From an uncultured Solirubrobacteraceae bacterium (GTDB lineage: Bacteria > Actinomycetota > Thermoleophilia > Solirubrobacterales > Solirubrobacteraceae): DNA of 64,000 nucleotides. The position numbers were made by a program, and so were the translations under genes. The notes below the pieces were generated by a model. The model saw nothing but the letters and a program-made list of their open reading frames with translations, had not been told where the DNA came from and ran no database searches. Below are positions 9,921-30,382 of this stretch, piece after piece; the first letter of the stretch is position 1, and every line of letters starts with the position of its first letter. The stretch is from positions 121,393-185,392 of the forward strand of contig CAZPQW010000003.1 in assembly GCA_964588985.1 (NCBI GenBank), written 5' to 3'.

Positions 9921-10779
9921 GCAGCTCCTTTTCGAACTCCTCGCTCAGGCGGCCCTCGAACACCGGGCGCGCCCAGCCTGTCAGGTTGACGTGCAGATCC
10001 TCCCCCACCTCCACCTCGAGCTCCCCACCGTCGAGCAGCACCGTCACGCGCTCCGGGCGCAGCGGCGGGTCGTATTCGAGGGCGTGCGCGATCGCCGCCC
10101 CCGTCGCGCCGGTGCCGGAGGAGAGGGTCTCGCCCACGCCCCGCTCGAAGATCCGCGCGCGGATGCGGCCGGACGTGCCGGGTTCCAGTTCGGTGTACCA
10201 CGACACGTTCGTGCGGTTGGGGAACCGCGCGTCGCCTTCGATCTCGATGCCGATCATGGGCAGATCGAGCACCTCCAATTCCTCCAGTGAGCCGACGTGG
10301 ATCGCGCACTGCGGGTTGCCGATGGAAACGTGCTGGAACACCCACGAGCGTCCCTGCGAGACGATCGTGCCGCGCCCGTCTCCGGGACCGTCCGGGAAGC
10401 CCTTCGAGCGCAGGCTCGCCTTGCCCATGTCCACCGTGCACGTGTCCGGGCCGGTGATCGTGGGGCTGATCTCGCCCGCGACGGTGAGGATCGTGAACTC
10501 GTCGCGGTCGGTCCAGCGGCGGCGCAGGTACATGATCGCCTCGCGCGCGCCGTTGCCCGAGAGCTCCGCCTCGGAGCCGTCCGGGTTGAAGATCCGCAGG
10601 TCGGCCACGTGCGCCGCCGGGTCGGCGGGAGGCGAGAGCAGCAGGACGCCGTCGGCGAACACTCCGAAGTGGCCCTCGCAGAGCCTGCGCACGCGCGCGG
10701 GCGTGAGCTCGAACGCGAGCTCGGCGCGCTCGAGGATCAGGTAGTCGTTGCCGAGCGCCTGCCACTTCTCGAATCTCAT
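9907..10779 (-). CDS. dapF: diaminopimelate epimerase
   Basis: MRFEKWQALGNDY, NPDGSEAELSGNG, SIGNPQ, ERGVGETLSSGTGA. Both canonical catalytic Cys positions read Ser (SGNG, SSGTG). Confidence 0.92.
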   Translation of the reverse strand: MRFEKWQALGNDYLILERAELAFELTPARVRRLCEGHFGVFADGVLLLSPPADPAAHVADLRIFNPDGSEAELSGNGAREAIMYLRRRWTDRDEFTILTVAGEISPTITGPDTCTVDMGKASLRSKGFPDGPGDGRGTIVSQGRSWVFQHVSIGNPQCAIHVGSLEELEVLDLPMIGIEIEGDARFPNRTNVSWYTELEPGTSGRIRARIFERGVGETLSSGTGATGAAIAHALEYDPPLRPERVTVLLDGGELEVEVGEDLHVNLTGWARPVFEGRLSEEFEKELHETE

Positions 10780-11723
10780 CCCGCTGTGCTCCCGGCTGGG
10801 TCGTTGCTCGCGGTGTCCACGGCGCGGGAGTCTAGGGAGTCCACAATCTCGCGCGCCACCGCGGCGGGGTCGCGCCCGGTGACGTCGATCACCCGCACGC
10901 CCGCGAGCTTTCGCATCCACGTGAGCTGGCGCTTGGCGTAGTTGCGTGTGCGCCGCTTCATCCGCTCCACGTCACCCGCGAGCAGCTCCTCGAAGCCGAG
11001 CGCCTTGCGCGCCGTCTCCGACGCGCCCGCGGCGTGCGCGCGACGGACCTCCTCCGCTGCGCCCGCCGCGACCATCGCATCCACACGCGCGTCGATCGCC
11101 TCGTAGAGCGCCTCACGCTCCATGGTGAGCCCCGCGAGCAGCGTCGGATGGCGCATCTCCTCGCTCCACAGCTGCGAGGGGCCGTCGGGCGGCTCGAGCT
11201 CGCCCTGCTCCAGCGACTCGAGCGCGCGCACGATCCGCTGGCGATCATTGGGGTCGAGCTTCTCGGCCGCCCATGGCGCGTGCTCGGCGAGCCGCGCGTG
11301 CAGCGCGGGCGCGCCGTCGCGTTCCAGTTCGGCCATCAGGCGCTCGCGCAGGCCCTCGGGCGGCGGCGGGCGCAGGTCCAGGTTGGTGAGCGCGGCGCGC
11401 AGATACAGGCCCGTGCCGCCCACCACGATCGGCCTGCGACCGGCCGCGAGCAGGTCGTCGATCTCGGCGTGGGCGAGCTGCGAGTACTGCCCCGCGCTGA
11501 ACGTCGCGTCGATCGGCAGGAACGACACCAGGCGATGCTCCAGCGCGCCCTGCTCGGCCGGCTGGGCGACGCCGGTGAGGGTCTCGAGGCCCGCGTAGAC
11601 CTGAAGCGCATCCGCGGACACCGCCACCGGGTCCTCGCCGCGGGCGCGCAGCAGCTCGGCGAGCGCGACCGCCACCGCGGTCTTGCCGACGCCCGTGGGT
11701 CCGAACAGCGCGATGATCCGCAT
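10776..11723 (-). CDS. miaA: tRNA dimethylallyltransferase
   Basis: GPTGVGKT, SADALQVY, VGGTGLYL, RIVRALE, TRNYAKRQLTW. Confidence 0.96.
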   Translation of the reverse strand: MRIIALFGPTGVGKTAVAVALAELLRARGEDPVAVSADALQVYAGLETLTGVAQPAEQGALEHRLVSFLPIDATFSAGQYSQLAHAEIDDLLAAGRRPIVVGGTGLYLRAALTNLDLRPPPPEGLRERLMAELERDGAPALHARLAEHAPWAAEKLDPNDRQRIVRALESLEQGELEPPDGPSQLWSEEMRHPTLLAGLTMEREALYEAIDARVDAMVAAGAAEEVRRAHAAGASETARKALGFEELLAGDVERMKRRTRNYAKRQLTWMRKLAGVRVIDVTGRDPAAVAREIVDSLDSRAVDTASNDPAGSTAG

Positions 11724-11742
11724 CGGGATAGGCTCACAGGTC

Positions 11743-12534
11743 ATGAAGATCTCCGGCTCCACCATCCTGCTCACCGGCGCCACCGGCGGCATCGGCCACG
11801 CGATCGCGCGCGCGCTCCACACGGGCGGCGCCAAGCTGATCCTCACCGGCCGGCGCACCGACGTGCTCGAGCCGCTCGCCGCGGAGCTGCAGGCGCAAGC
11901 CCTCGCGGTGGACCTCACAGACAGGGCCGACCTCGAGCGGCTGCTCGAGCAGGCGGGCGACGTCGACATCCTGGTCGCCAACGCCGCTCTGCCAGCCGCC
12001 GGACGCCTCGACACGTTCTCCACGACGGAGATCGAGCGGGCGCTCACGGTCAATCTCACCGCGCCGATCCTCATGGCGCACACACTCGCGCCGAAGATGG
12101 CGGCGCGCGGCGCGGGCCACCTGCTGTTCGTCAACTCGCTCTCCGGCAAGACCGCCACCGCTGGCACCTCGCTCTACAACGCCTCCAAGTTCGGGCTGCG
12201 CGGCTTCGCCGCCGCCCTGCGCGCGGAGCTCGTCGACAGCGGCGTCGGCGTCTCCTCCGTCTTCCCCGGCTTCATTCGCGACGCGGGCATGTTCGCGGAC
12301 GCGAACGTGAAGCTCCCCCGGGGCGTCGGCACGAGCTCGCCCGAGGACGTCGCGCGGGCGGTGGTGAGCGCGATCGAGCGCAACCGCCGCGAGGTCGACG
12401 TGGCGCCGGCGATGATGCGAGCGAGCACCGTGTTCAGCAACCTCACCCCCGAACTCGCACTCAAAGTCGCCCGCATGGCCGGCTCAGACGAGATCACGAA
12501 GGCGATGGACGTCGGGCAGCGCGACAAGCGCTGA
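11743..12534 (+). CDS. SDR family NAD(P)-dependent oxidoreductase
   Basis: TGATGGIG, NAA, S...YNASK catalytic motif. Confidence 0.93.
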   Translation: MKISGSTILLTGATGGIGHAIARALHTGGAKLILTGRRTDVLEPLAAELQAQALAVDLTDRADLERLLEQAGDVDILVANAALPAAGRLDTFSTTEIERALTVNLTAPILMAHTLAPKMAARGAGHLLFVNSLSGKTATAGTSLYNASKFGLRGFAAALRAELVDSGVGVSSVFPGFIRDAGMFADANVKLPRGVGTSSPEDVARAVVSAIERNRREVDVAPAMMRASTVFSNLTPELALKVARMAGSDEITKAMDVGQRDKR

Positions 12535-18745: not shown

Positions 18746-18997
18746 CGGAGCATAGCGGCAACCGCAATCTGGCTGTTGGCCTACTTCGACGGACTTGATC
18801 TTCCTCTCGAATCGAGCTAGGCGTGTGTCCAGTCCCGAGTCAGAACACTCGCTGCAGCAAGGACGGGTGATGCCCATAGCCACCGTGTCCTAGCCGCGCG
18901 GAGTGCGGAGCCTCGGTTGAGGCGATCACAACGGCAACGTCTGTGCCGGGCGTCGTTGTGCGGTTAGGCTTCGCTGACCATCGCGTCTGAGCCCTCC

Positions 18998-20386
18998 GTG
19001 TTGATCATCTCTCAAGCTCAGGCCGCAGAGATTAAGACGCTGCTGCCAGCCGTTGACGCGCCCCGGCGGGCGGATCAGCATATGGCTCGCGCCCGGCTGC
19101 GGAGTATCGGGTATCCGCTCTCCGCCGCGCCGACCGTAACCGACTATCAGGCGTTTGTCGCCTGCGGAGAGATCCGCGTCGATGGAACCGGGCGCGCGCG
19201 GATCGTTCGGCAGACGTCGACGCGGGTGTTCAAGGTCTCGGTCGGAGTCAGCGGCTTTCCCGTTGACCCGACGTGGTGGGCGTTTGATCAGCGCTATCAG
19301 TGGCTTGGCCGGCAGCCCCACCAGGTCGGCTCCGGTGATCATCTGTTTGCGATGGCGGTCGACCGTTGGCGCAGCGCCGTGGTAGGTCTGTACGAAGCCG
19401 TGTCACCTGGTGCTCAGGCTCTCCCTGGTTCTCCCGATCCGAAGCGCTGGCCGTTCGCGTTGGGCGTGCGGCCGCTAGCGGCGATCCTGCCTCCGGATGC
19501 CGAACGGGTCCCCGGGCTTTATGGGCCGCAGAACCCAATACCGGAGCACGTCAACAACCCGGACCATCAGACGGCGCTCTACGCGGCCGTGAGCAACAGC
19601 CCCCCTGCCCCATCTCCCACCACTGTCGAGGCTCGAATCCAGGAGGTGCAGTGGCGCGACTTGGGTGACGACGTCCTTCAGGCTGTCTACGAGCTCGGCA
19701 GCGAGGCGCGATTTGGCGAGGTGCTGGAACGGGCGATCGCGATCGGCCGATGGACCCCGGAGGAGCTCGGCGTGCTGGCCTGGTACACCAGCGCCAATGC
19801 CGAGCCTTCTCACATCCGCACAGTCGTGCGGCAGGCGATCGGCTTTGAGGAGAGCTTGACTCGGCGGATCCACCGCGACTACAGCAGCGGCCCGTACCGG
19901 ATCGTCGGTGACTATGCGCTGGTCGGCAGCGGGTTCGGCTCCACGTATCGGCCAGCCAGCGGACACGAAGCGACACAGCCGGACGACGCAGTGCTCAAGA
20001 TTGACCTCGCGGCACTTGAGGCGGCGACCGAACGACACATGAAGCTGCAGGACGACCTGGCTGAGGCATTGGAGGCACGGGGGATCGACCCTCGGTCGCC
20101 ATCCGGCTCCCAGCCGTTCTTTGACCTCGCCTTCGAGCACGACGGCCTCCGCTACGTGGTCGAGGTCAAGAGCGGCAACCCGGCAAGCCAGCAGCAGGTC
20201 CGCTATGGCGTCGGTCAGGTCTTGGAGTATGCCCACCTGCTCAGCAGCGCGGACGCTTCGGTGATTCCGGTGATCCTGATCGAGAGCGTCCCGCCGATGC
20301 CATGGGTGGATCTGGCGGGGCAGCTCGGCGTCCGGGTGCTTGTCGCGGCTGAGCTTGATTCCGCGTTGGACACATTGCTTCAGTAA
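18998..20386 (+). CDS. putative modification-dependent (type IV-like) restriction endonuclease: small N-domain + EVE/PUA-like + Mrr_N-like winged helix + PD-(D/E)XK nuclease
   Basis: EVE-like VGSGDHLFAMAV...VVGLYEAVS...RWPFALGVRP; wH-like DVLQAVYELGSEARFGEVLERA...GPYRI; nuclease HMKLQ...FDLAF...VVEVKS...QVRYGVGQVLEY. Confidence 0.7.
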   Translation: MLIISQAQAAEIKTLLPAVDAPRRADQHMARARLRSIGYPLSAAPTVTDYQAFVACGEIRVDGTGRARIVRQTSTRVFKVSVGVSGFPVDPTWWAFDQRYQWLGRQPHQVGSGDHLFAMAVDRWRSAVVGLYEAVSPGAQALPGSPDPKRWPFALGVRPLAAILPPDAERVPGLYGPQNPIPEHVNNPDHQTALYAAVSNSPPAPSPTTVEARIQEVQWRDLGDDVLQAVYELGSEARFGEVLERAIAIGRWTPEELGVLAWYTSANAEPSHIRTVVRQAIGFEESLTRRIHRDYSSGPYRIVGDYALVGSGFGSTYRPASGHEATQPDDAVLKIDLAALEAATERHMKLQDDLAEALEARGIDPRSPSGSQPFFDLAFEHDGLRYVVEVKSGNPASQQQVRYGVGQVLEYAHLLSSADASVIPVILIESVPPMPWVDLAGQLGVRVLVAAELDSALDTLLQ

Positions 20387-20441
20387 ACGGTGTGTCCGGC
20401 TGCGGCGCTCTGCGTAACTGTCTGACCGATCCCTCCCGTAG

Positions 20442-20577
20442 CTTTCCGACCGCGCCGTCCTCAGGCGTGTCTCCCCATCAACGTCTGGCCCACGCTTGGA
20501 CGCTGAGGAGCAAGGGCCCAAGGCTCGGGGAAGGTTCACCCATTCCGTGATCGTGAGCGTGGGACGCGATCGGAAAG
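20442..20577 (+). ncRNA. candidate pseudoknotted structured RNA (5' leader of 20587..21039)
   Basis: P1 20442-20454/20565-20577 (12 of 13 bp), P2 20458-20468/20500-20509, interleaved P3 20489-20497/20555-20563; P1 covers the RBS. Confidence 0.55.
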
Positions 20578-20586
20578 GTGGGCTGT

Positions 20587-21039
20587 ATGACTGAGTACTC
20601 CGGTCTTAAGCGCCAGGTCAGGGCGCGGATGGCGATCACTGGCGAGCCGTACTCGGTGGCTCGGCGAGCTATCCAGAACGCGGAAGTGGCCGTGTCTCAG
20701 CAGGAATTGAAGCGGCTGATCGCCGACATCCAGGAGTTTCTGGCCGGGCGCGGCCGCGTGATGGTGCCCCACGACTTCACGGTCGAGTCGGTCAAGGACG
20801 ACACGGCGGTGGTGCGGATGCCAGTGATCTGGAAGCCCCGGAAGGACATGATCATCGCGCTTGCGAGCGACACGCCGGCCGCCAAGAACGTGGATGAGCT
20901 GCGCAGCCTGTTCGAGCGCGGGCTGGGCTCCGGCGAGTATCTGCCCAACGCCAGGCTCGCGGATTGGGACGCCGTCATCGAGGACGGGCCGCGGCCCGGC
21001 AAGCTCGATTGGACGGTTCGGGTCCGCGTCAGCGCCTAG
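20587..21039 (+). CDS. hypothetical protein with N-terminal KRxVRARMxxTGExYxxARR motif
   Basis: GAAAGG RBS before ATG 20587; basic helical N-terminal motif followed by an unrelated alpha/beta domain. Confidence 0.8.
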   Translation: MTEYSGLKRQVRARMAITGEPYSVARRAIQNAEVAVSQQELKRLIADIQEFLAGRGRVMVPHDFTVESVKDDTAVVRMPVIWKPRKDMIIALASDTPAAKNVDELRSLFERGLGSGEYLPNARLADWDAVIEDGPRPGKLDWTVRVRVSA

Positions 21040-21541
21040 CCACCGAGGTTGAGCGAGTGCGGGCGGCCAGCGCCGCCCGCACTCGTCCCGCAGTCGAACG
21101 TCCGCTCGGCCCGGTTGTTGGCGTGGGTGCGGGCGTCCTCTTCAGCCACGTTCCACGCAACTGGCGGCGGGGAGCGCCCTCAACGGTGTGGGCGCGCCAT
21201 GCATTGCAGGATCGTCGCTGAGGTCAACTCGCTGTATGCCTGCGAGACACGAGAGCAGGGCGGTAATCGATCGCCGGTGCCTTCCCTCCTCCTCCTCGCC
21301 AATTGCAGGACTGCGGCGCCTGCTTCGCCCCGGCGAAGCGGAAGCCAGCGTCGGCACCGACGGCGTCGCTGCTTTGGACGAGTTGCAGTCGTCCTGGCGT
21401 CCACTCTGCAGACGCTCGCTTATGCTGGAGAAAGTGGCGTGCTACCCCGGCCCGCACCGCCCGTATGTTCGAACTGGGTTAGTGGTCGCACGTGGGGAAG
21501 ACACGCGTGGCGACCTGCGTGGGTCCGTTAGGGTTGGCGGG

Positions 21542-22908: not shown

Positions 22909-24012
22909 TCAGAGCTCGATCACGCTGCGGATGCCCGCCTGGGCCTCCATCAGCTCGAAGCCACGGTTGACTTCGTCGAGCGTGAGGCGGTGCGAGATGA
23001 ACGGGTCGACGTCGATGTCGCCGGCGAGATAGCGGCGCACGAGCGCGGGCACATCTTCGCGGCCCTTCAGGCCGCCGAAGGAGGATCCGCAGATCCGCCG
23101 GCCGGTGATCAGCAGGCGCGGCACCACGTCGAGGGTCTCGCCGCGCCCCGCGACGCCGCACACCGTGCACAGCCCCCACCCCATCCGCGCGGCCTCGACC
23201 GCCTGACGCATCACCGCGACGCTGCCGGTCGCCTCGAAGGTGTAGTCCGCGCCGAAGCCGCCGGTCATCTCGAGGATCGTCTCGACCGTGTCGGGCCCGC
23301 CGATCAGCGTGTCGGTGGCGCCCTGTCCGCGCGCCAGCTCCAGTCGCGCGGGCGCCATGTCGACGCACACGATCCGCTCGGCGCCCTGCAGCCGGCAGCC
23401 GGCGACCGCCCCGAGGCCGACCATCCCCGCGCCGAACACCACGCACGTGGAGCCGGCGCGCACCGCGGCGGTCTTCATCGCGGCCCCGAGCCCGGTGGAG
23501 AGCCCGCACGCGAACAGGCACGCGCGGTCGAGCGGCGCCTCGGGGTCGATGCGCGCGAGCGCAATCTCCGGCATCACGGTGTACTCCGCGAACGTCGAGG
23601 TGCCCATGAAGTGGCGCAGCGGCTCCCCCGCGCGCGACAGGCGCGTGGTGCCGTCGGGGAGGTAGCCGAGGTTCTGCTGCTCGCGGATCGCGAGGCACAG
23701 GTTGGTGAGCGGGCTGACGCAGTGCACGCACTCGCCGCACTGGGGCGAGAACAGCGTCACCACGTGGTCGCCCTCGCTCAGCAGCGTCACATCGCTGCCG
23801 ACCCGCTCCACCACGCCCGCGCCCTCGTGGCCGAGCACCGTCGGCGCGTAGCCGGAGGGGTCGACGCCGGAGGCGGTGTAGAGGTCGGTGTGGCACACGC
23901 CGCACGCCACGAGACGCACGAGCACCTCCTTCGGCCCTGGCTCCGCGAGCTCGACCTCTTGGACTACGAGCGGAGCGGCGAACTCCTCGAGCACCGCCGC
24001 GCGGATCTTCAT
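22909..24012 (-). CDS. zinc-dependent alcohol dehydrogenase (class III/formaldehyde dehydrogenase-like)
   Basis: GVCHTD, LGHEGAG, CGECVHC...C, HFMGTSTFAEYTV, GAGMVG, GSSFGG. Confidence 0.93.
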   Translation of the reverse strand: MKIRAAVLEEFAAPLVVQEVELAEPGPKEVLVRLVACGVCHTDLYTASGVDPSGYAPTVLGHEGAGVVERVGSDVTLLSEGDHVVTLFSPQCGECVHCVSPLTNLCLAIREQQNLGYLPDGTTRLSRAGEPLRHFMGTSTFAEYTVMPEIALARIDPEAPLDRACLFACGLSTGLGAAMKTAAVRAGSTCVVFGAGMVGLGAVAGCRLQGAERIVCVDMAPARLELARGQGATDTLIGGPDTVETILEMTGGFGADYTFEATGSVAVMRQAVEAARMGWGLCTVCGVAGRGETLDVVPRLLITGRRICGSSFGGLKGREDVPALVRRYLAGDIDVDPFISHRLTLDEVNRGFELMEAQAGIRSVIEL

Positions 24013-25352
24013 CGGCTGGCGGTCGGGCTGGAGCCACCGACCCTCGCGAGCAGGCGTTCCTCGCCGGAGAGCGTCTGGCTGGTCGCGGCGAGGATCTCCA
24101 CCTCGGTCAGCTCTCCCGACTGGGCGAGTCCGCCGAAGTTGACGACCTTGTTGTGGCGGGTGCGCCCGCGCAGGCGCTCGGGGTCGTTGCGCGAGGCGCC
24201 TTCCACGAGCACCTCCACCGTGCGCCCGACGAAGCGCTCCGCGCGCTCCTTCGCTCGGCGCTGGACGATCTCGAGCAGCCGTTCCATTCGCTCCACCTTC
24301 ACGGGGTGCGGCACGAGGCCCTCGGTCAGCTCGGCCGCGTCGGTGCCGCGACGCGGGGAGAAGATGAACGTGAAGGCGCTGTCGTAGCCGACCTCCTCGG
24401 CCACTTCGAGGGTCTCCTGGAAGTCCTCCTCGGTCTCGCCGGGGAAGCCCACGATGATGTCGGTGGTGAGCGCCACGTCGGGCACGTGCTCGCGGATCAT
24501 CGCCACGCGATCCATGTAGCGCGCGCGGTCGTAGGTGCGGCGCATCGCCTTGAGGATGCGGCTGGAGCCCGACTGCAGCGGCAGGTGGATGTGCTCGCAC
24601 ACGCTCTCGAGCTCCGCGTGCGCGCGCACCACGTCCTCGCGCATGTCCTTCGGGTGCGGGCTCGTGTAGCGGATGCGCTCGATCCCGTCGATCCCGTCGA
24701 GCAGCCTCAGCAGCTCGGAGAAGCTCGCCCGCGGCGCCAGGTCGCGCCCGTAGGAGTTGACGTTCTGCCCGAGCAGCGTGACCTCCCTCACGCCGTCGGC
24801 GACCATCCCCTCGACCTCCGCCACCAGCTCACCTAAGGGCCTGCTGACCTCGCGTCCGCGAGTGGAGGGAACGATGCAGTAGGAGCACGCGCAGTTGCAG
24901 CCCACGCTGATCTGCAGCCACCCCTGGAAGGCGCGCGCGCGGCGTGCCGGCAGGTGGCCGGTGAAGCCCTCGAACTCGAAGAAGCCCTGTGCGGTCAGCG
25001 AGTCGCTCGTGAGGAACTCCGCCAGCTTGTGCACCTGCCCGGGCCCGAACGCGACGTCCACGAACGGGAAGCGCTCGAACACCTCGTCCTTGAGCGACTG
25101 CGCCCAGCAGCCGCCCACGCCCACGACCGTCCCCGGTGTTTCCCGCTTGAGCCTCTTCGCCTCGCCGAGGTGCGAGATGAAGCGCGCGTCGGCCGTCTCG
25201 CGGATCGAGCACGTGTTGAACAGGATCAGGTCCGCCTCACTGCGCGCGGGCGCCTCGCTGTAGCCGAGCGACTCGAGCATCCCCTTCATCCGCTCGGAGT
25301 CGTGCTCGTTCATCTGACAGCCGAACGTCGTCAGGTGGTAGCGCTTTGCCAT
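24009..25352 (-). CDS. miaB: tRNA-2-methylthio-N6-dimethylallyladenosine synthase MiaB
   Basis: TFGCQMNEHDSE, NTCSIRE, radical-SAM CNCACSYC, LLGQNVNSY, HLPLQSGS, DIIVGFPGET, TRAM domain. Confidence 0.97.
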   Translation of the reverse strand: MAKRYHLTTFGCQMNEHDSERMKGMLESLGYSEAPARSEADLILFNTCSIRETADARFISHLGEAKRLKRETPGTVVGVGGCWAQSLKDEVFERFPFVDVAFGPGQVHKLAEFLTSDSLTAQGFFEFEGFTGHLPARRARAFQGWLQISVGCNCACSYCIVPSTRGREVSRPLGELVAEVEGMVADGVREVTLLGQNVNSYGRDLAPRASFSELLRLLDGIDGIERIRYTSPHPKDMREDVVRAHAELESVCEHIHLPLQSGSSRILKAMRRTYDRARYMDRVAMIREHVPDVALTTDIIVGFPGETEEDFQETLEVAEEVGYDSAFTFIFSPRRGTDAAELTEGLVPHPVKVERMERLLEIVQRRAKERAERFVGRTVEVLVEGASRNDPERLRGRTRHNKVVNFGGLAQSGELTEVEILAATSQTLSGEERLLARVGGSSPTASR

Positions 25353-25422
25353 GGCTGCACAAGGGTACCGGCGCAAGCTCCTGTCGTTCGTCGGCATCGC
25401 CACCCGTCGCTACTCTTTTGGT

Positions 25423-26125: not shown

Positions 26126-28423
26126 CTACGACTCGAACATCATGGCGACGAGGGCGTGTAGGTCGTCGGAGTGCTCTACGCGTGGTTCCATCGCGGTGCG
26201 AGGTAGTACAAGGCTCCAGCCCTCCTTGCCGTCCGCCAAGCCTCGGCTGAGGTCAACGGTCCCGCGTACGACGAGCGCCATTTTCGGCGACTTCAGCGCG
26301 AAGAGCTTGCCTCTGACCTTCGCGTCCAAGAGGTGGTGGCCCGTCGTGTCCACAGCCCAGCACACGCCTTTCTTCCAAATGAGGAAGTCGGGGTAGAACG
26401 TGAGGGAGTCGCCGACCTTCTTCGGCAGCGGCACGCCGTAGCCCTGGCTTCCCGTCGTGGGGTTGCGGACCCAGATCACGCCTTTCACGCGGTCAATGGC
26501 GTGCGCGAACGGCGCCTCGTCTTTGTTGAAGTCGTTCCGTGAGTACCCGGCATGCGCGGCATGCACAAACGAGATCATGTCCTCGCTGCGGGGCCTGTAC
26601 TCGCTTACGGTCCATGTCAGCCGGTCGGGGTCCGGGTCCTCCTCGTAGTCCACGCGTTGCTCGTAGTAGTCCACGATGCGCGCCGCGAGTGCCACTAGGT
26701 CGTCCTGCGCCTGCGAGCCATGGCAGCTGTACTGCTCAAACGCCGGACCGTTGAATCGGTCCGGATGAATCGCGATCAAGCAATTACGGTTGCGCTGAAG
26801 GATTCGCTGGTGGACGAACCTGCCGTTCCTAGTGCGGGCGCTGCGCAGCACGGCTATGTCCTCGTACTCCTCGCTGCCCTCCGTCAGCGACACAACGGCC
26901 TTGCGACCCGTTCCCGGCGCTTCCAGATCCTCGTCGTCCCATTTGCGTGACGATTGGCTGCGGAGTTCTTTCCTCGGTGTTGTCATGTCTGGTGCCTTCA
27001 GTGCCCAGCGCGTGAGCTTGAGTTGTTTCGCTCCGCGCTTCACCGGCACGGGTGTCAGCGGCTCCTTGCGCGTCTTCACGCGCACCGTGGCGAACGCGGG
27101 TTCGTCTTCGGGCGCGTACAGCCGCAGCTCGGCCTTCAAGTCTGAGACGACGGTTTCGTAAGCCGACGTTGGTGTCTCGAGAATCAGGGTGGCGGTATTC
27201 AGCTCTTCAGCGGCGAAGCGTCGGGCGCGGGGCTGCCGCAGCACTCGGCCAACGATCTGGCGTATGCGCACAAACGATTTCGTGACGCCGTCGAAATAGC
27301 AGACGTATGCCTCGGGGTCGTCCCAGCCCTCCTGCAGCGCTTGGTTGAAGATGATGTGTCGGTAACGAGGCTCAAGTTGGCTCAGGCTAGCGACGCGCTC
27401 CGCGCCCTCCGGCAGCTCCTTCGTGTCCGTATACACCGCGATCTCGTCCGCGGGCACGCCGCGCGAGAGCAGATGACGCCAGATCGCCACGGGCCGAGCC
27501 TCCTCGTTGGAGCCGCGCCGAGGATTGCTCTTCTCCACGACGTAGATCGCGCGCGGCGTTATGCCCGCTTCCTCCGCGTCGGTGGCGGCCTGCACGCGTT
27601 CCAGCGCAGCGAGTGCGCCGTCTAGGCTCTCCTCGGAGCCGCTCCGGTAGTCCACGACCTCAATCGTCGTCTTCAGAAGGTTCGCGTCCACCACGTCACG
27701 CGTCCTGATCGGGACTTTTCCAGCGGCCAGCAGTGCTTTCGTCTCCTCTCCCTGGTTCAGCGCCTCCTCCCATTTCACGAACAGGTCGTTCATGAGCGGC
27801 GTCGCCGATGCCATGAAGAAGCCGCGCGGTTTGAGAGCAGCGAGCTGGTCCAGCTGCACTTCGCTTTGGTTGTGGCTCTCGTCAGACACGATCCAGAGCG
27901 GTCGCCTCAGGTTCTCACGTAGCTGGTAAAACGGGGCGCCCTCGCCGGCCCAGTCCGCCTGTTCTCGGCGGAGGCGCAGGCGGGCATCACCGTCTCCTAC
28001 ACCGGCCTCGGCCTCGTTCCACGAGGCCACGGTCAATACCCAAATCGTGACCCCTTTCCTACTGTCAATCAGCTCGCGCCATGCAAGCTGGCTCGGGATG
28101 TCACGGATCACCTTCGCGCCCGGCGGCAGCAGCGAGCGGTACTTGCCGTTCAGGTTCTCGTAGGTCTGCTCCACGACAGCGCTGGATCGCGTCGTCCAGA
28201 AGATCACCGCATCGCCGAGTCCTGCGACCGTACCAGCGAGCACCGGCGTCTTCCCGGAGCCCGTGACGGCCTTCAGCTGCCCCAGGAATGGGATCGGGGA
28301 TTCGCCGTATTCCGGCGGGTGGCCGCGCCGGACGGCATACGCCACCCAGGACAGCGCGGCTTCCCTGAGCGACTGGGCGGCTTCTTCCTGGAACGGGAAG
28401 AGTCGGAAGCTATCCACCGTCAT
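26126..28423 (-). CDS. Type III restriction Res-like SF2 helicase with C-terminal PD-type nuclease domain
   Basis: LFPFQ, TGSGKT, DESH, SAT, LQEGWDDP, QIVGRVLR, FYPDF; overlaps the mod stop. Confidence 0.85.
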   Translation of the reverse strand: MTVDSFRLFPFQEEAAQSLREAALSWVAYAVRRGHPPEYGESPIPFLGQLKAVTGSGKTPVLAGTVAGLGDAVIFWTTRSSAVVEQTYENLNGKYRSLLPPGAKVIRDIPSQLAWRELIDSRKGVTIWVLTVASWNEAEAGVGDGDARLRLRREQADWAGEGAPFYQLRENLRRPLWIVSDESHNQSEVQLDQLAALKPRGFFMASATPLMNDLFVKWEEALNQGEETKALLAAGKVPIRTRDVVDANLLKTTIEVVDYRSGSEESLDGALAALERVQAATDAEEAGITPRAIYVVEKSNPRRGSNEEARPVAIWRHLLSRGVPADEIAVYTDTKELPEGAERVASLSQLEPRYRHIIFNQALQEGWDDPEAYVCYFDGVTKSFVRIRQIVGRVLRQPRARRFAAEELNTATLILETPTSAYETVVSDLKAELRLYAPEDEPAFATVRVKTRKEPLTPVPVKRGAKQLKLTRWALKAPDMTTPRKELRSQSSRKWDDEDLEAPGTGRKAVVSLTEGSEEYEDIAVLRSARTRNGRFVHQRILQRNRNCLIAIHPDRFNGPAFEQYSCHGSQAQDDLVALAARIVDYYEQRVDYEEDPDPDRLTWTVSEYRPRSEDMISFVHAAHAGYSRNDFNKDEAPFAHAIDRVKGVIWVRNPTTGSQGYGVPLPKKVGDSLTFYPDFLIWKKGVCWAVDTTGHHLLDAKVRGKLFALKSPKMALVVRGTVDLSRGLADGKEGWSLVLPRTAMEPRVEHSDDLHALVAMMFES

Positions 28424-30293
28424 CCGGGGCGGTTAGCAACGCGGTCTCCAGCGCCTCAACGGCGTCGGCGTCACCGTGGAGGGCAGCATCGTCGTCGTCC
28501 GTAATCTGAAGCGCCGCCAGGATCTCATCGGGGATCTGGCAGAAACGGAAGGATTCGGTCTCACCGATCTCGCACGTCGCGGCGTATGCCCGCAGCGGCC
28601 GACGTAGGCCCTTCGCCTTCGTCTCGTCGAACATCGCGACGAGCACGTCGCGTGTGATCGCCGACTCCTTCCTTCCGTTCCAGCACAGACAGATCGCCTC
28701 CTGTCGCGAGTTGTAGCCTATGACGTACTGGCCGGCGACACGCGTGATGCCGCGGCCCTTGCCCGTGGCATCCGTGTGCATGATGAGGTTCGCAATTGCC
28801 TCGCGCTCCAGCTCCAGGATCGCGCCCCTGTTAAGGCGACGACCCGTGCTTTCAAACGTGAAGCCACCGGGCAGCTTCTCCTTCTGGATCGCCGTCTTCA
28901 AACGTGGCGCGATGAAGGTGCGGCAGTAGCGGTCCTCGCGCGTGCCCTCCTCAATGAGGATAAATCGGCGCGAGCCACCGTCGGCGGCGTTGAGCCGCAT
29001 CACGGCTTGCCCTGTCGTTCCGGAGCCAGCGAACGGGTCCAACACGAGCGCGTCGGAGTCGCCTGCGAAGCCGATCAAAGTCTCAATTAGGGTTGTGGGC
29101 TTCGCGTTGGGGAAACGGCCGGCGTCTTTCGGAAGTAGCCTCTTCAAGTCGGCTGCGCCGCCACGCGAGCCCAGCTCAATCACGCCACGCAGCGGTGGCC
29201 GAAGCTCCCGTAGGTACTTCTTGAGCTGGACGAGCCGGCGCGCATCCCTCGGATAGATGATGCGCCCTTCCGACTCCAGGCGCCGCATCGTCTCCTCAGG
29301 GAAGCGGTAACCCCGCCCCGGCTTCTTGTGCACGAGTCCGGTCTCCGGGTTCACAACGTCGTAGACGTAGCCGCCAGGGTGCGGGTTCTCGGTCGTGCGG
29401 TTCGCGGCGTACGGGCCACGCTCGTCCACGAAGGAGTAGCGGGCGAGGTCGCCGAGGTCCACGATGCCTGACTCCTCTGCGGACTGCGTTGACGCGCCAT
29501 ACGCCGCAATGTGCTCCTTGATTGCGGCCTGGTACGCCTTCTCAATCACCGCGACCTCGCCGCGGTGCTTCTTCTTCAGCTGTTCGTACGTCTGCAGCAG
29601 CCAGAGCTGCGCCGGACTGTCGCCGGACCACACCCGAGGCACCTCCTCCTCGCGCTTCGCGTAACAGAGGATGTACTCGTGACCGACCGCGATCCTCGTC
29701 GGATTGTTGTCTGCTGCCTGCTTCCAAACGACGACGCCGAGGCGGTTACGCTCACCGAAGATCTCGTCCATGAGCATGCCGAGTCGGAAGAGCTCGATGT
29801 CGTTGATGGAGACGAAGCAGATGCCGTCCTCAGCGAGTAGCTGCCAGACGAGCCAGAGGCGCGGGCCGATGAAGTTCAGCCACTTGGTGTGTCGGCCGCC
29901 GTCCTCGTTGTTCACGTACACCATGTCGTCGGCATCGGCGTTCGGGTCGTGGAAGCGCGCGTCGGAGTAAGCGAAGTCGCTCTTCCCAGTGTTGTACGGC
30001 ACGTCTAGGTAAGCAACGTTGACCATGCCCTGGTACTGCGAGCGCAGCGACACCATTACTTGAAGGTTGTCGCCCTCAATCACGCGGTTGTCCCGCGGCT
30101 TCCCGAACGACAGCTTCGGCACGGCCTCCAGCATGCGCGGCGCCGGCATCCTCGTCCGGTAGCCCTTCCGGCCCTCCCAGTGGAGGTACATGCCGGGACC
30201 GCCGGGGCGGCCCGCGGCGCGCGTCACGGGGTCCAGCGAAACCCGACCGTTCGTGGGCTTTGTGGTCGCGGCTTTCTTGCGTGCTGTTGCCAT
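28410..30293 (-). CDS. Type III Mod-like adenine DNA methyltransferase (beta class)
   Basis: IEGDNL, DVPYNTG (motif IV variant), HTKWLNF..PRL, MDEIFGE.N, HEYILCYAK, KPTTLI, DPFAGSGTTG, RRFILIE. Confidence 0.9.
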   Translation of the reverse strand: MATARKKAATTKPTNGRVSLDPVTRAAGRPGGPGMYLHWEGRKGYRTRMPAPRMLEAVPKLSFGKPRDNRVIEGDNLQVMVSLRSQYQGMVNVAYLDVPYNTGKSDFAYSDARFHDPNADADDMVYVNNEDGGRHTKWLNFIGPRLWLVWQLLAEDGICFVSINDIELFRLGMLMDEIFGERNRLGVVVWKQAADNNPTRIAVGHEYILCYAKREEEVPRVWSGDSPAQLWLLQTYEQLKKKHRGEVAVIEKAYQAAIKEHIAAYGASTQSAEESGIVDLGDLARYSFVDERGPYAANRTTENPHPGGYVYDVVNPETGLVHKKPGRGYRFPEETMRRLESEGRIIYPRDARRLVQLKKYLRELRPPLRGVIELGSRGGAADLKRLLPKDAGRFPNAKPTTLIETLIGFAGDSDALVLDPFAGSGTTGQAVMRLNAADGGSRRFILIEEGTREDRYCRTFIAPRLKTAIQKEKLPGGFTFESTGRRLNRGAILELEREAIANLIMHTDATGKGRGITRVAGQYVIGYNSRQEAICLCWNGRKESAITRDVLVAMFDETKAKGLRRPLRAYAATCEIGETESFRFCQIPDEILAALQITDDDDAALHGDADAVEALETALLTAPDDGG

Positions 30294-30382
30294 CTTGCCT
30301 CCGATTCTCGCCGATTCCGCGGCGTCGCGGCCCCCCAGAGCCACGCCGAGCTAGCCACCTACCGGTTGTCCGTCTCGACCCA

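Follow-up and report, generated by a model that had tools for sequence, protein, structure and literature searches.

The locus

The window analyzed here is a 64,000-nucleotide (nt) stretch of DNA from an uncultured Solirubrobacteraceae bacterium. Our subject is the 200-nt spacer that, in this high-GC genome, separates two open reading frames (ORFs) called ORF1 and ORF2. A first-pass annotation, made from the sequence alone, flagged this spacer as a pseudoknotted RNA that hides the ribosome-binding site of ORF2, the product of which opens with a short arginine-rich motif. Here, we describe the RNA, its relatives among the Actinomycetota, and its association with that motif. The genes and the translation signal at the locus are as follows.

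18998-20386, + strand: ORF1, 462 amino acids, lying upstream of ORF2 in a shared 2.2-2.5 kb cassette
20572-20578, + strand: GGAAAGG, the Shine-Dalgarno (SD) sequence of ORF2, ending 8 nt 5' of the ATG at 20587 and paired in a 3' hairpin in the minimum free energy (MFE) fold
20587-21039, + strand: ORF2, 150 amino acids, with residues 1-30 (20587-20676) forming the arginine-rich two-helix N-terminal motif

The start of ORF2 is most likely the ATG at 20587; some gene calls use an alternative start, M15, which yields 136-residue forms. The protein opens MTEYSGLKRQVRARMAITGEPYSVARRAI, and its residues 1-28 carry the pattern M-T...R-x-R-M-x-x-T-G-E-x-Y-x-x-A. An AlphaFold2 model of low confidence (mean predicted local distance difference test score 58.4) places helices at residues 4-18 and 22-31. 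Beyond residue 30, ORF2 is an alpha/beta domain with no family match.

A peptide motif that opens unrelated proteins

The motif MTxQxxFKRRVRARMxKTGESYTxARR (profile A3) opens proteins in 58 of 401 Actinomycetota genomes, nine of which are flagged as unpublished, with 81 matches overall. In a class-level profile search, residues 1-30 of ORF2 recur in seven further genomes of 401. Matches begin at model positions 1-5, save six weak ones (E >= 9e-4) that begin at positions 9-14. The open frames concerned span 63-947 codons, or 74-724 codons for matches below E = 1e-9. M1, T2, R12, R14, T18, G19, E20, Y22, and A25 are invariant in alignment A3. By codon position, the entropy of the motif is 0.63, 0.55, and 1.03 bits, and R12, R14, T18, and A25 use all synonymous third bases. 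Because invariant residues vary at their third bases, selection acts on the peptide and not on an RNA structure in the coding region.

What lies behind the motif differs from protein to protein. Specifically, DUF4287 and AHSA1 domains follow it in 16 and 15 of 34 proteins, respectively. Other partners are BtrH_N together with DUF4872, DUF5701, DUF1835, an AAA/HerA-like ATPase, TPR, WD40, CN_hydrolase (nitrilase), and a sigma-70 factor, and some motif proteins have no recognizable further domain. The motif thus sits on at least nine unrelated protein architectures. The idea that it heads otherwise unrelated actinobacterial proteins, put forward in the first-pass annotation, is confirmed by the profile searches and the domain annotation.

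The motif itself matches no established family. In Pfam, the nearest models fall below their cut-offs: HTH_58 at E = 0.15 (12.4 bits versus a cut-off of 23.8) and KfrA_N at E = 0.0095 (17.1 bits versus 26.1). No NCBIfam model covers it, and a profile search of the PDB with the motif gives a top match of E = 0.92. In the protein atlas, the N-terminal part of ORF2 retrieves only unnamed clusters, with scores of at most 0.85. The window's own genome holds eight other matches to a loose form of the pattern, none of them N-terminal or motif-like, and a tblastn search of plasmids with the 36-residue motif returns no match.

A family of structured leader RNAs

Upstream of the motif genes lies a conserved leader of ~165 nt. 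We described its 5' domain with a covariance model, R1, built from 28 seed sequences, with the window, a Micromonospora locus (L012), and three divergent members left out; the E-values of R1 are rough because calibration was short. R1 still finds the three divergent members (42-46 bits); the scores of clear members span 42-98 bits.

The 5' domain comprises four helices, Pa, Pb, Pc, and Pd. In the 31-row R1 alignment, 94.5% of helix cells are paired versus 82.2% in column shuffles, a level that 0 of 500 shuffles reach. As a further control, sliding the partners by 1-3 columns leaves only 37-53% paired. Fourteen of the 23 pairs change on both sides. Helix by helix, Pa is 94.2% paired, Pb has both-side changes in 3 of 6 pairs, Pc covaries at 6 of 6 pairs with 99.5% of cells paired, and Pd covaries at 4 of 6 pairs. 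One G.U pair of Pd is invariant in 31 of 31 members, and because of it we take the element to act as RNA rather than as a DNA site.

Two pseudoknots complete the fold. In the first, PK1, the Pa loop GUCCC pairs with GGGAC located 3' of Pd (93.5% paired versus 77.9% in shuffles; covariation at 4 of 5 pairs). In the second, PK2, the Pc loop (CyCACGC) and the apical loop of the 3' hairpin (GCGUGrG) make a 7-bp kissing contact. PK2 pairs over its full length in 33 of 33 family sequences, with exclusively Watson-Crick pairs in 27 of them. It exists in five covarying loop types: CUCACGC/GCGUGAG, CCCACGC/GCGUGGG, CCCGCGC/GCGCGGG, UUCACGC/GCGUGAA, and CCCCAGC/GCUGGGG. When a loop is compared with the 3' domain of another type, only 58 of 750 comparisons yield a full Watson-Crick complement.

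A single long hairpin, topped by a helix called Pf, makes up the 3' domain (89.6% paired versus 82.6% in shuffles; 8 of 15 pairs covary). Within it, an internal pyrimidine strand, the anti-SD, pairs with the SD sequence, and 3 of the 5 pairs of that helix covary. In single-sequence MFE folds, 28 of 33 members have at least one base of the AUG in a pair and 25 of 33 have, by our own count, three or more paired SD bases. A frequent pairing in these folds joins GGUC to the GACC of AUGACC. Thus, covariation establishes the family fold, and that fold occludes the start region. Because the relatives share ancestry, the shuffle controls given here overstate significance and should not be taken at face value; more weight goes to the slid controls and to how varied the loop types are.

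A promoter element accompanies the fold. A TANNNT hexamer ends 5-8 nt 5' of Pa in 31 of 31 members and in 0 of 31 control windows placed 100 nt further upstream. Because this spacing is constant in the family, the RNA probably begins at Pa.

The prediction of a structured, pseudoknotted RNA without an Rfam match is thus borne out, both by the family covariation and by a scan against Rfam 15. That scan finds nothing in 20387-20586 at E <= 10, and on 20 member loci at E <= 1 it returns only tRNAs and sub-threshold chance matches elsewhere. Upstream of the motif genes, a conserved and covarying structure is present as Pa-Pd, PK1, and PK2 rather than as the full set of stems first drawn. A phage blastn search with the leader gives no match.

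Leader and motif occur together

The leader is coupled near-obligatorily to an ORF that begins with the 30-residue, arginine-rich, two-helix N-terminal domain. The association holds whichever partner is taken first. Starting from the peptide, R1 matches at E <= 1.1e-5 for 31 of 34 motif genes. Among a further 20 motif genes, 17 have a match at E < 0.005 in the expected place, and one more has a match at E = 0.053. From RNA to peptide, an unbiased R1 search of 151 genomes gives 20 matches in 17 genomes, and 19 of the 20 lie 75-100 nt upstream of a motif ORF independently listed by the motif profile search. With the four matches in unpublished genomes set aside, the count is 15 of 16. An additional carrier, Nonomuraea gerenzanensis, was picked up when plasmid records were searched for similarity; there, R1 scores 65 bits and an ORF opening MTDHKHLKRRVRERMARTGESYTT follows 88 nt downstream. 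In this cultured organism, the motif gene lies around 3525163 of NZ_LT559118.1. As the first-pass annotation had anticipated, the RNA travels with the N-terminal motif, and the motif is fused to many different downstream domains.

Individual loci illustrate the range of such fusions. Leader plus motif precedes a sigma-70 factor at locus L113 (304-1209), a WD40 propeller at L108 (309-1292), TPR repeats at L110 (307-1671), and a carbon-nitrogen hydrolase at L111 (304-1314). In one sub-group (L094-L097, L099, L105, and L110), the proteins open MP(T/R)DKDFKRLVRARMGKTGESYT, so their start reads ATGCC instead of ATGAC, and their variant leaders score 20-35 bits with R1. Pfam annotation of three of these seven proteins gives two with BtrH_N plus DUF4872 and one, L110, with TPR. 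In two metagenome contigs, L013 (1388-2269) and L014 (4986-5867), a HerA/VirB4-like ATPase bears the motif in a MAITGEPY subtype. In L013, R1 detects no leader with its filters off; L014 was searched with default filters only.

The window's element

The spacer of the window can be laid out along the family fold as follows; positions of Pb, Pc, and Pd are those of the R1 alignment.

20439-20444, + strand: -10-like hexamer TAGCTT (TANNNT), ending 6 nt 5' of C20451, the family spacing
20451-20469, + strand: Pa hairpin, arms 20451-55/20465-69 (R1) or 20452-56/20464-68 (MFE fold of 20452-20595), loop containing GUCCUC
20472-20509, + strand: Pb helix, 20472-77 with 20504-09, 5 of 6 pairs, enclosing Pc
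20482-20502, + strand: Pc hairpin, CGUCUGG/UUGGACG, 7-nt loop CCCACGC at 20489-95
20514-20526, + strand: Pd hairpin, GGGCC-CAA-GGCUC, preceded by a conserved single-stranded AAGGG
20528-20531, + strand: GGGA, candidate 3' strand of PK1, with UCCU 20458-61 in the Pa loop; assigned by homology, with only 4 bp possible
20533-20584, + strand: long hairpin of the 3' domain (MFE fold of 20526-20595, z = -1.65)
20557-20563, + strand: GCGUGGG, 3' partner of PK2, with CCCACGC 20489-95, 7 of 7 Watson-Crick pairs, 30 nt before the ATG

Transcription is predicted to start at about 20450-20452. With filters off, R1 matches 20300-20700 best at 20448-20533 on the + strand, scoring 13.7 bits (E = 0.0052 in this targeted search of 401 nt). 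R1 places all four helices, Pa to Pd, in order; AAGGG separates Pb from Pd. By our own mapping, three non-standard pairs are present in the alignment: C20475.A20506 in Pb, A20513.G20527 in Pd, and one more flagged in its NC line. Downstream, the 3' hairpin consists of the helices 20533-40/20577-84, UUCC 20543-46 with GGAA 20572-75 (the anti-SD/SD pairing), and Pf 20549-55/20565-71, with AGCGUGGGA (20556-64) as the apical loop. Two copies of the locus from elsewhere, L009 (z = -2.00) and L010 (z = -1.62), are predicted to form this hairpin as well. Finally, the Micromonospora locus shares the peptide subtype of ORF2, RARMAITGEPYSVA, borne there by another protein, as well as the divergent RNA subtype, its own copy scoring 14.5 bits. 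On the order of the helices, the intact kissing loops, and the promoter spacing, we judge the window element (about 20451-20586) to be, probably, a divergent member of the family.

Variation among copies of the locus bears on this assignment. To the window, L009, and L010/L011 we added three more variants from contigs of four public sequencing runs, used for sequence variants only. The contigs of runs X23 and X24 extend from ORF1 into ORF2, which is no evidence of a transcript.

20387-20441: 8 of 55 sites variable
20442-20454, + strand: 5' arm of the outer stem P1 of the first-pass annotation, 7 of 13 sites variable among the window, L009, and L010, the highest proportion in the locus; no compensation in 20565-77
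20455-20577: spacer core, 6 of 123 sites variable
Third codon positions of both ORFs: 92 of 614 sites variable (Fisher p = 0.002 versus the core)

The run contigs add only two changes to the core, 20535 T>G and 20565 C>G. Both kissing loops are invariant across all variants of the locus, and TANNNT at the -10 position is kept in all five variants while 7 of 13 neighboring sites vary. In L010, 20566 G>A and 20581 G>A each turn a U.G pair of the 3' hairpin into a U-A pair, and the first of these breaks P1.

Interpretation

We favor the following explanation. Positions 20451-20586 of the window are probably the 5' untranslated region that precedes ORF2. They would belong, as a divergent copy, to a leader-RNA family that is widespread in Actinomycetota and has no match in Rfam 15, and the start region in this leader would be closed. 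Transcription would start a few bases 3' of the TANNNT -10 box. The 5' domain would fold into Pa, Pb, Pc, and Pd and would be locked by the pseudoknot between the Pa loop and the GGGAC strand. In the 3' hairpin, the lower helices would pair the SD sequence and, in most members, also the AUGACC start region with internal complementary strands, and the apical loop GCGUGrG would kiss the Pc loop CyCACGC over 7 bp. Because the folded leader closes the initiation region, some input must shift the balance.

The notion is that the leader holds translation off until it is remodeled, and that the input could be the N-terminal domain itself, which would create autogenous translational feedback. The N-terminal domain is the simplest candidate because it is the only feature shared by otherwise unrelated products. 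We offer this identification of the input as a tentative proposal, to which we give somewhat less than even confidence. If it is right, leader and arginine-rich domain may recognize each other and constitute a portable, self-contained cassette, for feedback or for tethering to mRNA, that has been grafted onto at least nine architectures; this, too, is a conjecture that we entertain while leaning slightly the other way. In the window, such a cassette would sit on the small protein of a mobile two-gene cassette.

Several observations weigh against the proposal that the window holds a closed, feedback-controlled leader of this family. Regarding the coupling, no leader is detectable at three motif genes, L013, L109, and L112 (for L013, no R1 match at E <= 1). 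Conversely, a leader remnant exists without a motif gene at L089, where a truncated 5' domain on the - strand (1501-1582, 43.8 bits), with neither 3' domain nor motif ORF, lies upstream of an rpsO-like gene; it is probably a decayed copy of the leader. Regarding membership, the window, L009, and L010 are missed by R1 with default filters, and the window scores only 13.7 bits versus 42-98 for clear members. The window also lacks the GGCGGGGC/GCCGCCGCC helix of most members, and the AUG stays single-stranded in its MFE fold. Regarding the 3' hairpin, the changes at 20544 (L010) and 20535 (run contigs X23/X24) break pairs, and the change at 20565 (X23/X24) opens the closing pair of the apical loop. 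Finally, the present results do not separate binding of the peptide from any other input.

That last point leads to the alternative that survives best. Under it, the leader would work as a riboswitch or respond to a shared trans-acting factor, the input being a small molecule, an ion, a second messenger, a small RNA, a helicase, or temperature. The N-terminal domain would in that case do something else, serving for instance as a minimal DNA-binding helix-turn-helix (HTH) or as an anchor to ribosome or nucleoid, and its co-occurrence with the leader would reflect membership in one regulon. Translational riboswitches have the same architecture, in which a compact, pseudoknotted 5' domain precedes a hairpin that sequesters the SD. 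The motif resembles a two-helix HTH in the AlphaFold2 model, with the faint HTH_58 (E = 0.15) and KfrA_N (E = 0.0095) similarities pointing the same way, and the TPR, WD40, SRPBCC, and sigma-70 partners are typical of regulators that act through DNA binding. Against this stands the finding that 19 of 20 unbiased RNA matches lie in front of the N-terminal domain. To our knowledge, riboswitch regulons share a pathway, and not a 30-residue N-terminal domain on at least nine unrelated architectures. Moreover, the gene set suggests no ligand, and the Pfam matches of the motif are far below their cut-offs. We consider this alternative rather unlikely.

The first-pass fold

A different alternative is that the fold originally drawn for the window holds. 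It consists of a 136-nt RNA (20442-20577) in which an outer stem, P1, masks the ribosome-binding site and two inner stems, P2 and P3, form a pseudoknot. All three stems are present in the sequence, and P2 and P3 interleave as claimed. P1 joins 20442-20454 to 20565-20577 at 12 of 13 positions, with one C.A mismatch. P2, as read from the sequence, joins TCCTCAG-G-CGT (20458-68) to ACGCTGAGGA (20500-09) through 10 pairs with one bulged G, and it is missing from the repeat listing because of that bulge. P3 joins CCCACGCT (20489-96) to AGCGTGGG (20556-63) through 8 perfect base pairs plus one G.U. Taken alone, the three stems are no more than chance would produce. The MFE of 20435-20600, -64.9 kcal/mol, is unexceptional (z = -0.51; 53 of 200 shuffles fold equally well), but this statistic has little power here: a clear family member, L055, reaches a z-score of only -0.92. 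Among 3000 random 136-nt windows of the same genome, 427 contain as many or more runs of at least 8 pairs, and 1012 contain a run of pairs as long or longer.

The family tells the stems apart. P3 is the covarying kissing loop, its core pairing 20557-63 with 20489-95. P2 is an alternative pairing: it cannot coexist with the conserved helices Pa and Pb, whose pairs covary in 31 relatives, and it lacks an equivalent in those relatives. Neither P2 nor P3 varies anywhere in the window's clade, which by itself is therefore uninformative about both. In P1, the 5' arm coincides in part with the conserved -10 hexamer and with the stretch up to the predicted transcription start, and it varies without compensation. 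We conclude that 20442-54 is probably promoter and discriminator DNA, and not part of the RNA made from this promoter. As for the hidden ribosome-binding site, it is indeed buried in a helix; the strand that masks it in the relatives is the internal anti-SD, and not a 5'-terminal one.

P1 could still form in read-through transcripts from ORF1, which are possible because no terminator-like site lies between ORF1 and 20442. Were the first-pass fold to hold, at least in such transcripts, it would account for the 12 of 13 pairs in P1, for the use of P1 and P3 in the MFE fold of 20435-20600, for the pyrimidine-rich anti-SD stretch that some variants keep, and for C20450>T, which mends the sole mismatch in L010 and X23/X24. 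L009, however, keeps only 8 of 13 P1 pairs by our own count, one of them G.U, while the change at 20566 breaks P1 yet improves the family Pf helix, and a 5'-terminal anti-SD strand occurs in no relative. We regard this fold as improbable.

Least probable of all is that the window copy is a decayed or non-functional relic with chance stems and with conservation left over from recent spread of the cassette: its weak model score, the abundance of such stems in this genome, and the 93-94% identity of the whole cassette among carriers, which implies that little time has elapsed, would fit, but the core varies far less than third codon positions (6 of 123 versus 92 of 614 sites, p = 0.002) or the adjacent 20387-20441 (8 of 55), the kissing loops, -10 spacing, and helix order all persist, every copy retains an intact ORF2, and the Micromonospora locus has the same divergent RNA and peptide subtypes.

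Relation to known regulatory systems

Autogenous translational operators are found in the mRNAs of ribosomal proteins and related mRNAs; examples are the pseudoknot of rpsO, bound by S15, and the thrS operator. PMC8470358 deals with the rpsO gene of mycobacteria. The leader family resembles autogenous operators such as rpsO/S15 and thrS in that a structured, often pseudoknotted leader overlaps the ribosome-binding site, control is exerted at translation initiation, and the proposed ligand is the product of the regulated gene. It differs in that the products are unrelated save for the 30-residue N-terminal domain, that no mimicry of ribosomal RNA was identified, that no Rfam leader matches, and that the ligand is a candidate.

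A second comparison is with translational riboswitches that use loop-loop or pseudoknot contacts, including the purine, SAM-II, preQ1-II, and ZTP classes and the translational T-boxes of Actinobacteria. Shared features are a compact, aptamer-like, pseudoknotted 5' domain and an SD-sequestering expression platform, placed directly 3' of the promoter. In contrast to riboswitch genes, the downstream genes here share a protein domain and not a pathway, and the 20 member loci have no Rfam match (E <= 1).

Third, arginine-rich-motif peptides recognize RNA hairpins in the pairs N/boxB of phage lambda, Nun of phage HK022, and Tat/TAR of HIV. As in those pairs, a short, basic, helical peptide is encoded near a structured RNA with conserved loops. 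Here, however, a two-helix hairpin opens full-length proteins, the leader is a ~165-nt RNA of several helices, and an interaction is proposed on the basis of co-occurrence.

We found no description of this RNA in Rfam 15 or in text searches of the literature, including a term search within PMC5737381. The leader family is apparently undescribed, a provisional judgment. Within a limited literature search, we know of no other leader RNA family whose downstream genes are linked by a protein domain instead of a pathway.

If this interpretation is correct, a large and well-supported family with four helices and two pseudoknots is added to the known structured RNAs. The linked motif is present in roughly one of every seven Actinomycetota genomes sampled. 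If leader and domain do recognize each other, they would form a testable, portable RNA-peptide regulatory module of manageable size (a peptide of 30 residues and an RNA of ~165 nt), for which natural covariation indicates the compensatory mutations. The family would likewise provide a handle on many proteins of unknown function, among them those with DUF4287, DUF4872, DUF5701, and DUF1835.

The mobile cassette and its neighbors

The leader of the window lies within a cassette that has the order ORF1, leader, ORF2. Copies L009 and L010/L011 share with the window a block of 2.2-2.5 kb (18897-21086 or 18897-21381) at 93-94% identity amid unrelated flanks, and few genomes carry the full-length element; for these reasons, we take ORF1, spacer, and ORF2 to move as a unit.

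18897-21381: cassette copy in the window
2167-4647 of L009: second copy
3316-5589 of L010: third copy

ORF2 is intact in every copy. The full-length element is present in 3 of 401 genomes of the order, the window's own included, and the class and order searches combined give full-length copies only in genomes G000, G639, and G564. Within a large protein collection, ORF2 has 19 relatives at E <= 0.001, and DNA was compared for three of them; more divergent homologs are P0013 (68% identity) and P0014 (59%). A metagenome scan for ORF2 relatives yields matches to the N-terminal motif only, and a viral scan yields none.

Two other accounts of the spacer were rejected. A small ORF within it is ruled out because L010/L011 have two separate 1-nt deletions. 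A repeat or miniature inverted-repeat transposable element was set aside as well: the intergenic sequence is single-copy in its own genome, and other matches there are 14-31 nt long with E >= 0.6.

ORF1 has no Pfam, NCBIfam, or PADLOC match, and the top match of a sequence search of the PDB reaches only E = 0.12. By eye, its C-terminal region contains a D...EVK motif resembling PD-(D/E)xK, and its look-alikes in the protein atlas carry NucS_C, EVE, ScoMcrA_N, or Mrr_cat domains at scores of 0.80-0.86, which are leads only. ORF1 may be a modification-dependent nuclease. By one copy of the cassette lie a large serine recombinase and LexA, and an AAA_15/GajA-like ATPase adjoins another. The proposal that the locus belongs to a defense-like island is plausible, with faint leads of this kind as its sole footing.

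Several further features mark the surroundings. At the cassette end, 21055-21084 forms a perfect 13-bp GC-rich hairpin with a CAGC loop and no U tail. In X23/X24, other contigs match only this hairpin and then diverge, and the hairpin may be a repeated element. A 210-nt stretch at 21087-21296 is common to the window and L009 and absent from L010/L011. The variable stretch that holds the cassette is flanked by miaA and miaB (10776-12164 and 24009-25403). Beyond these genes, within 26126-30341, are an N6_N4 DNA methylase (28410-30341) and a 764-residue protein without a family match.

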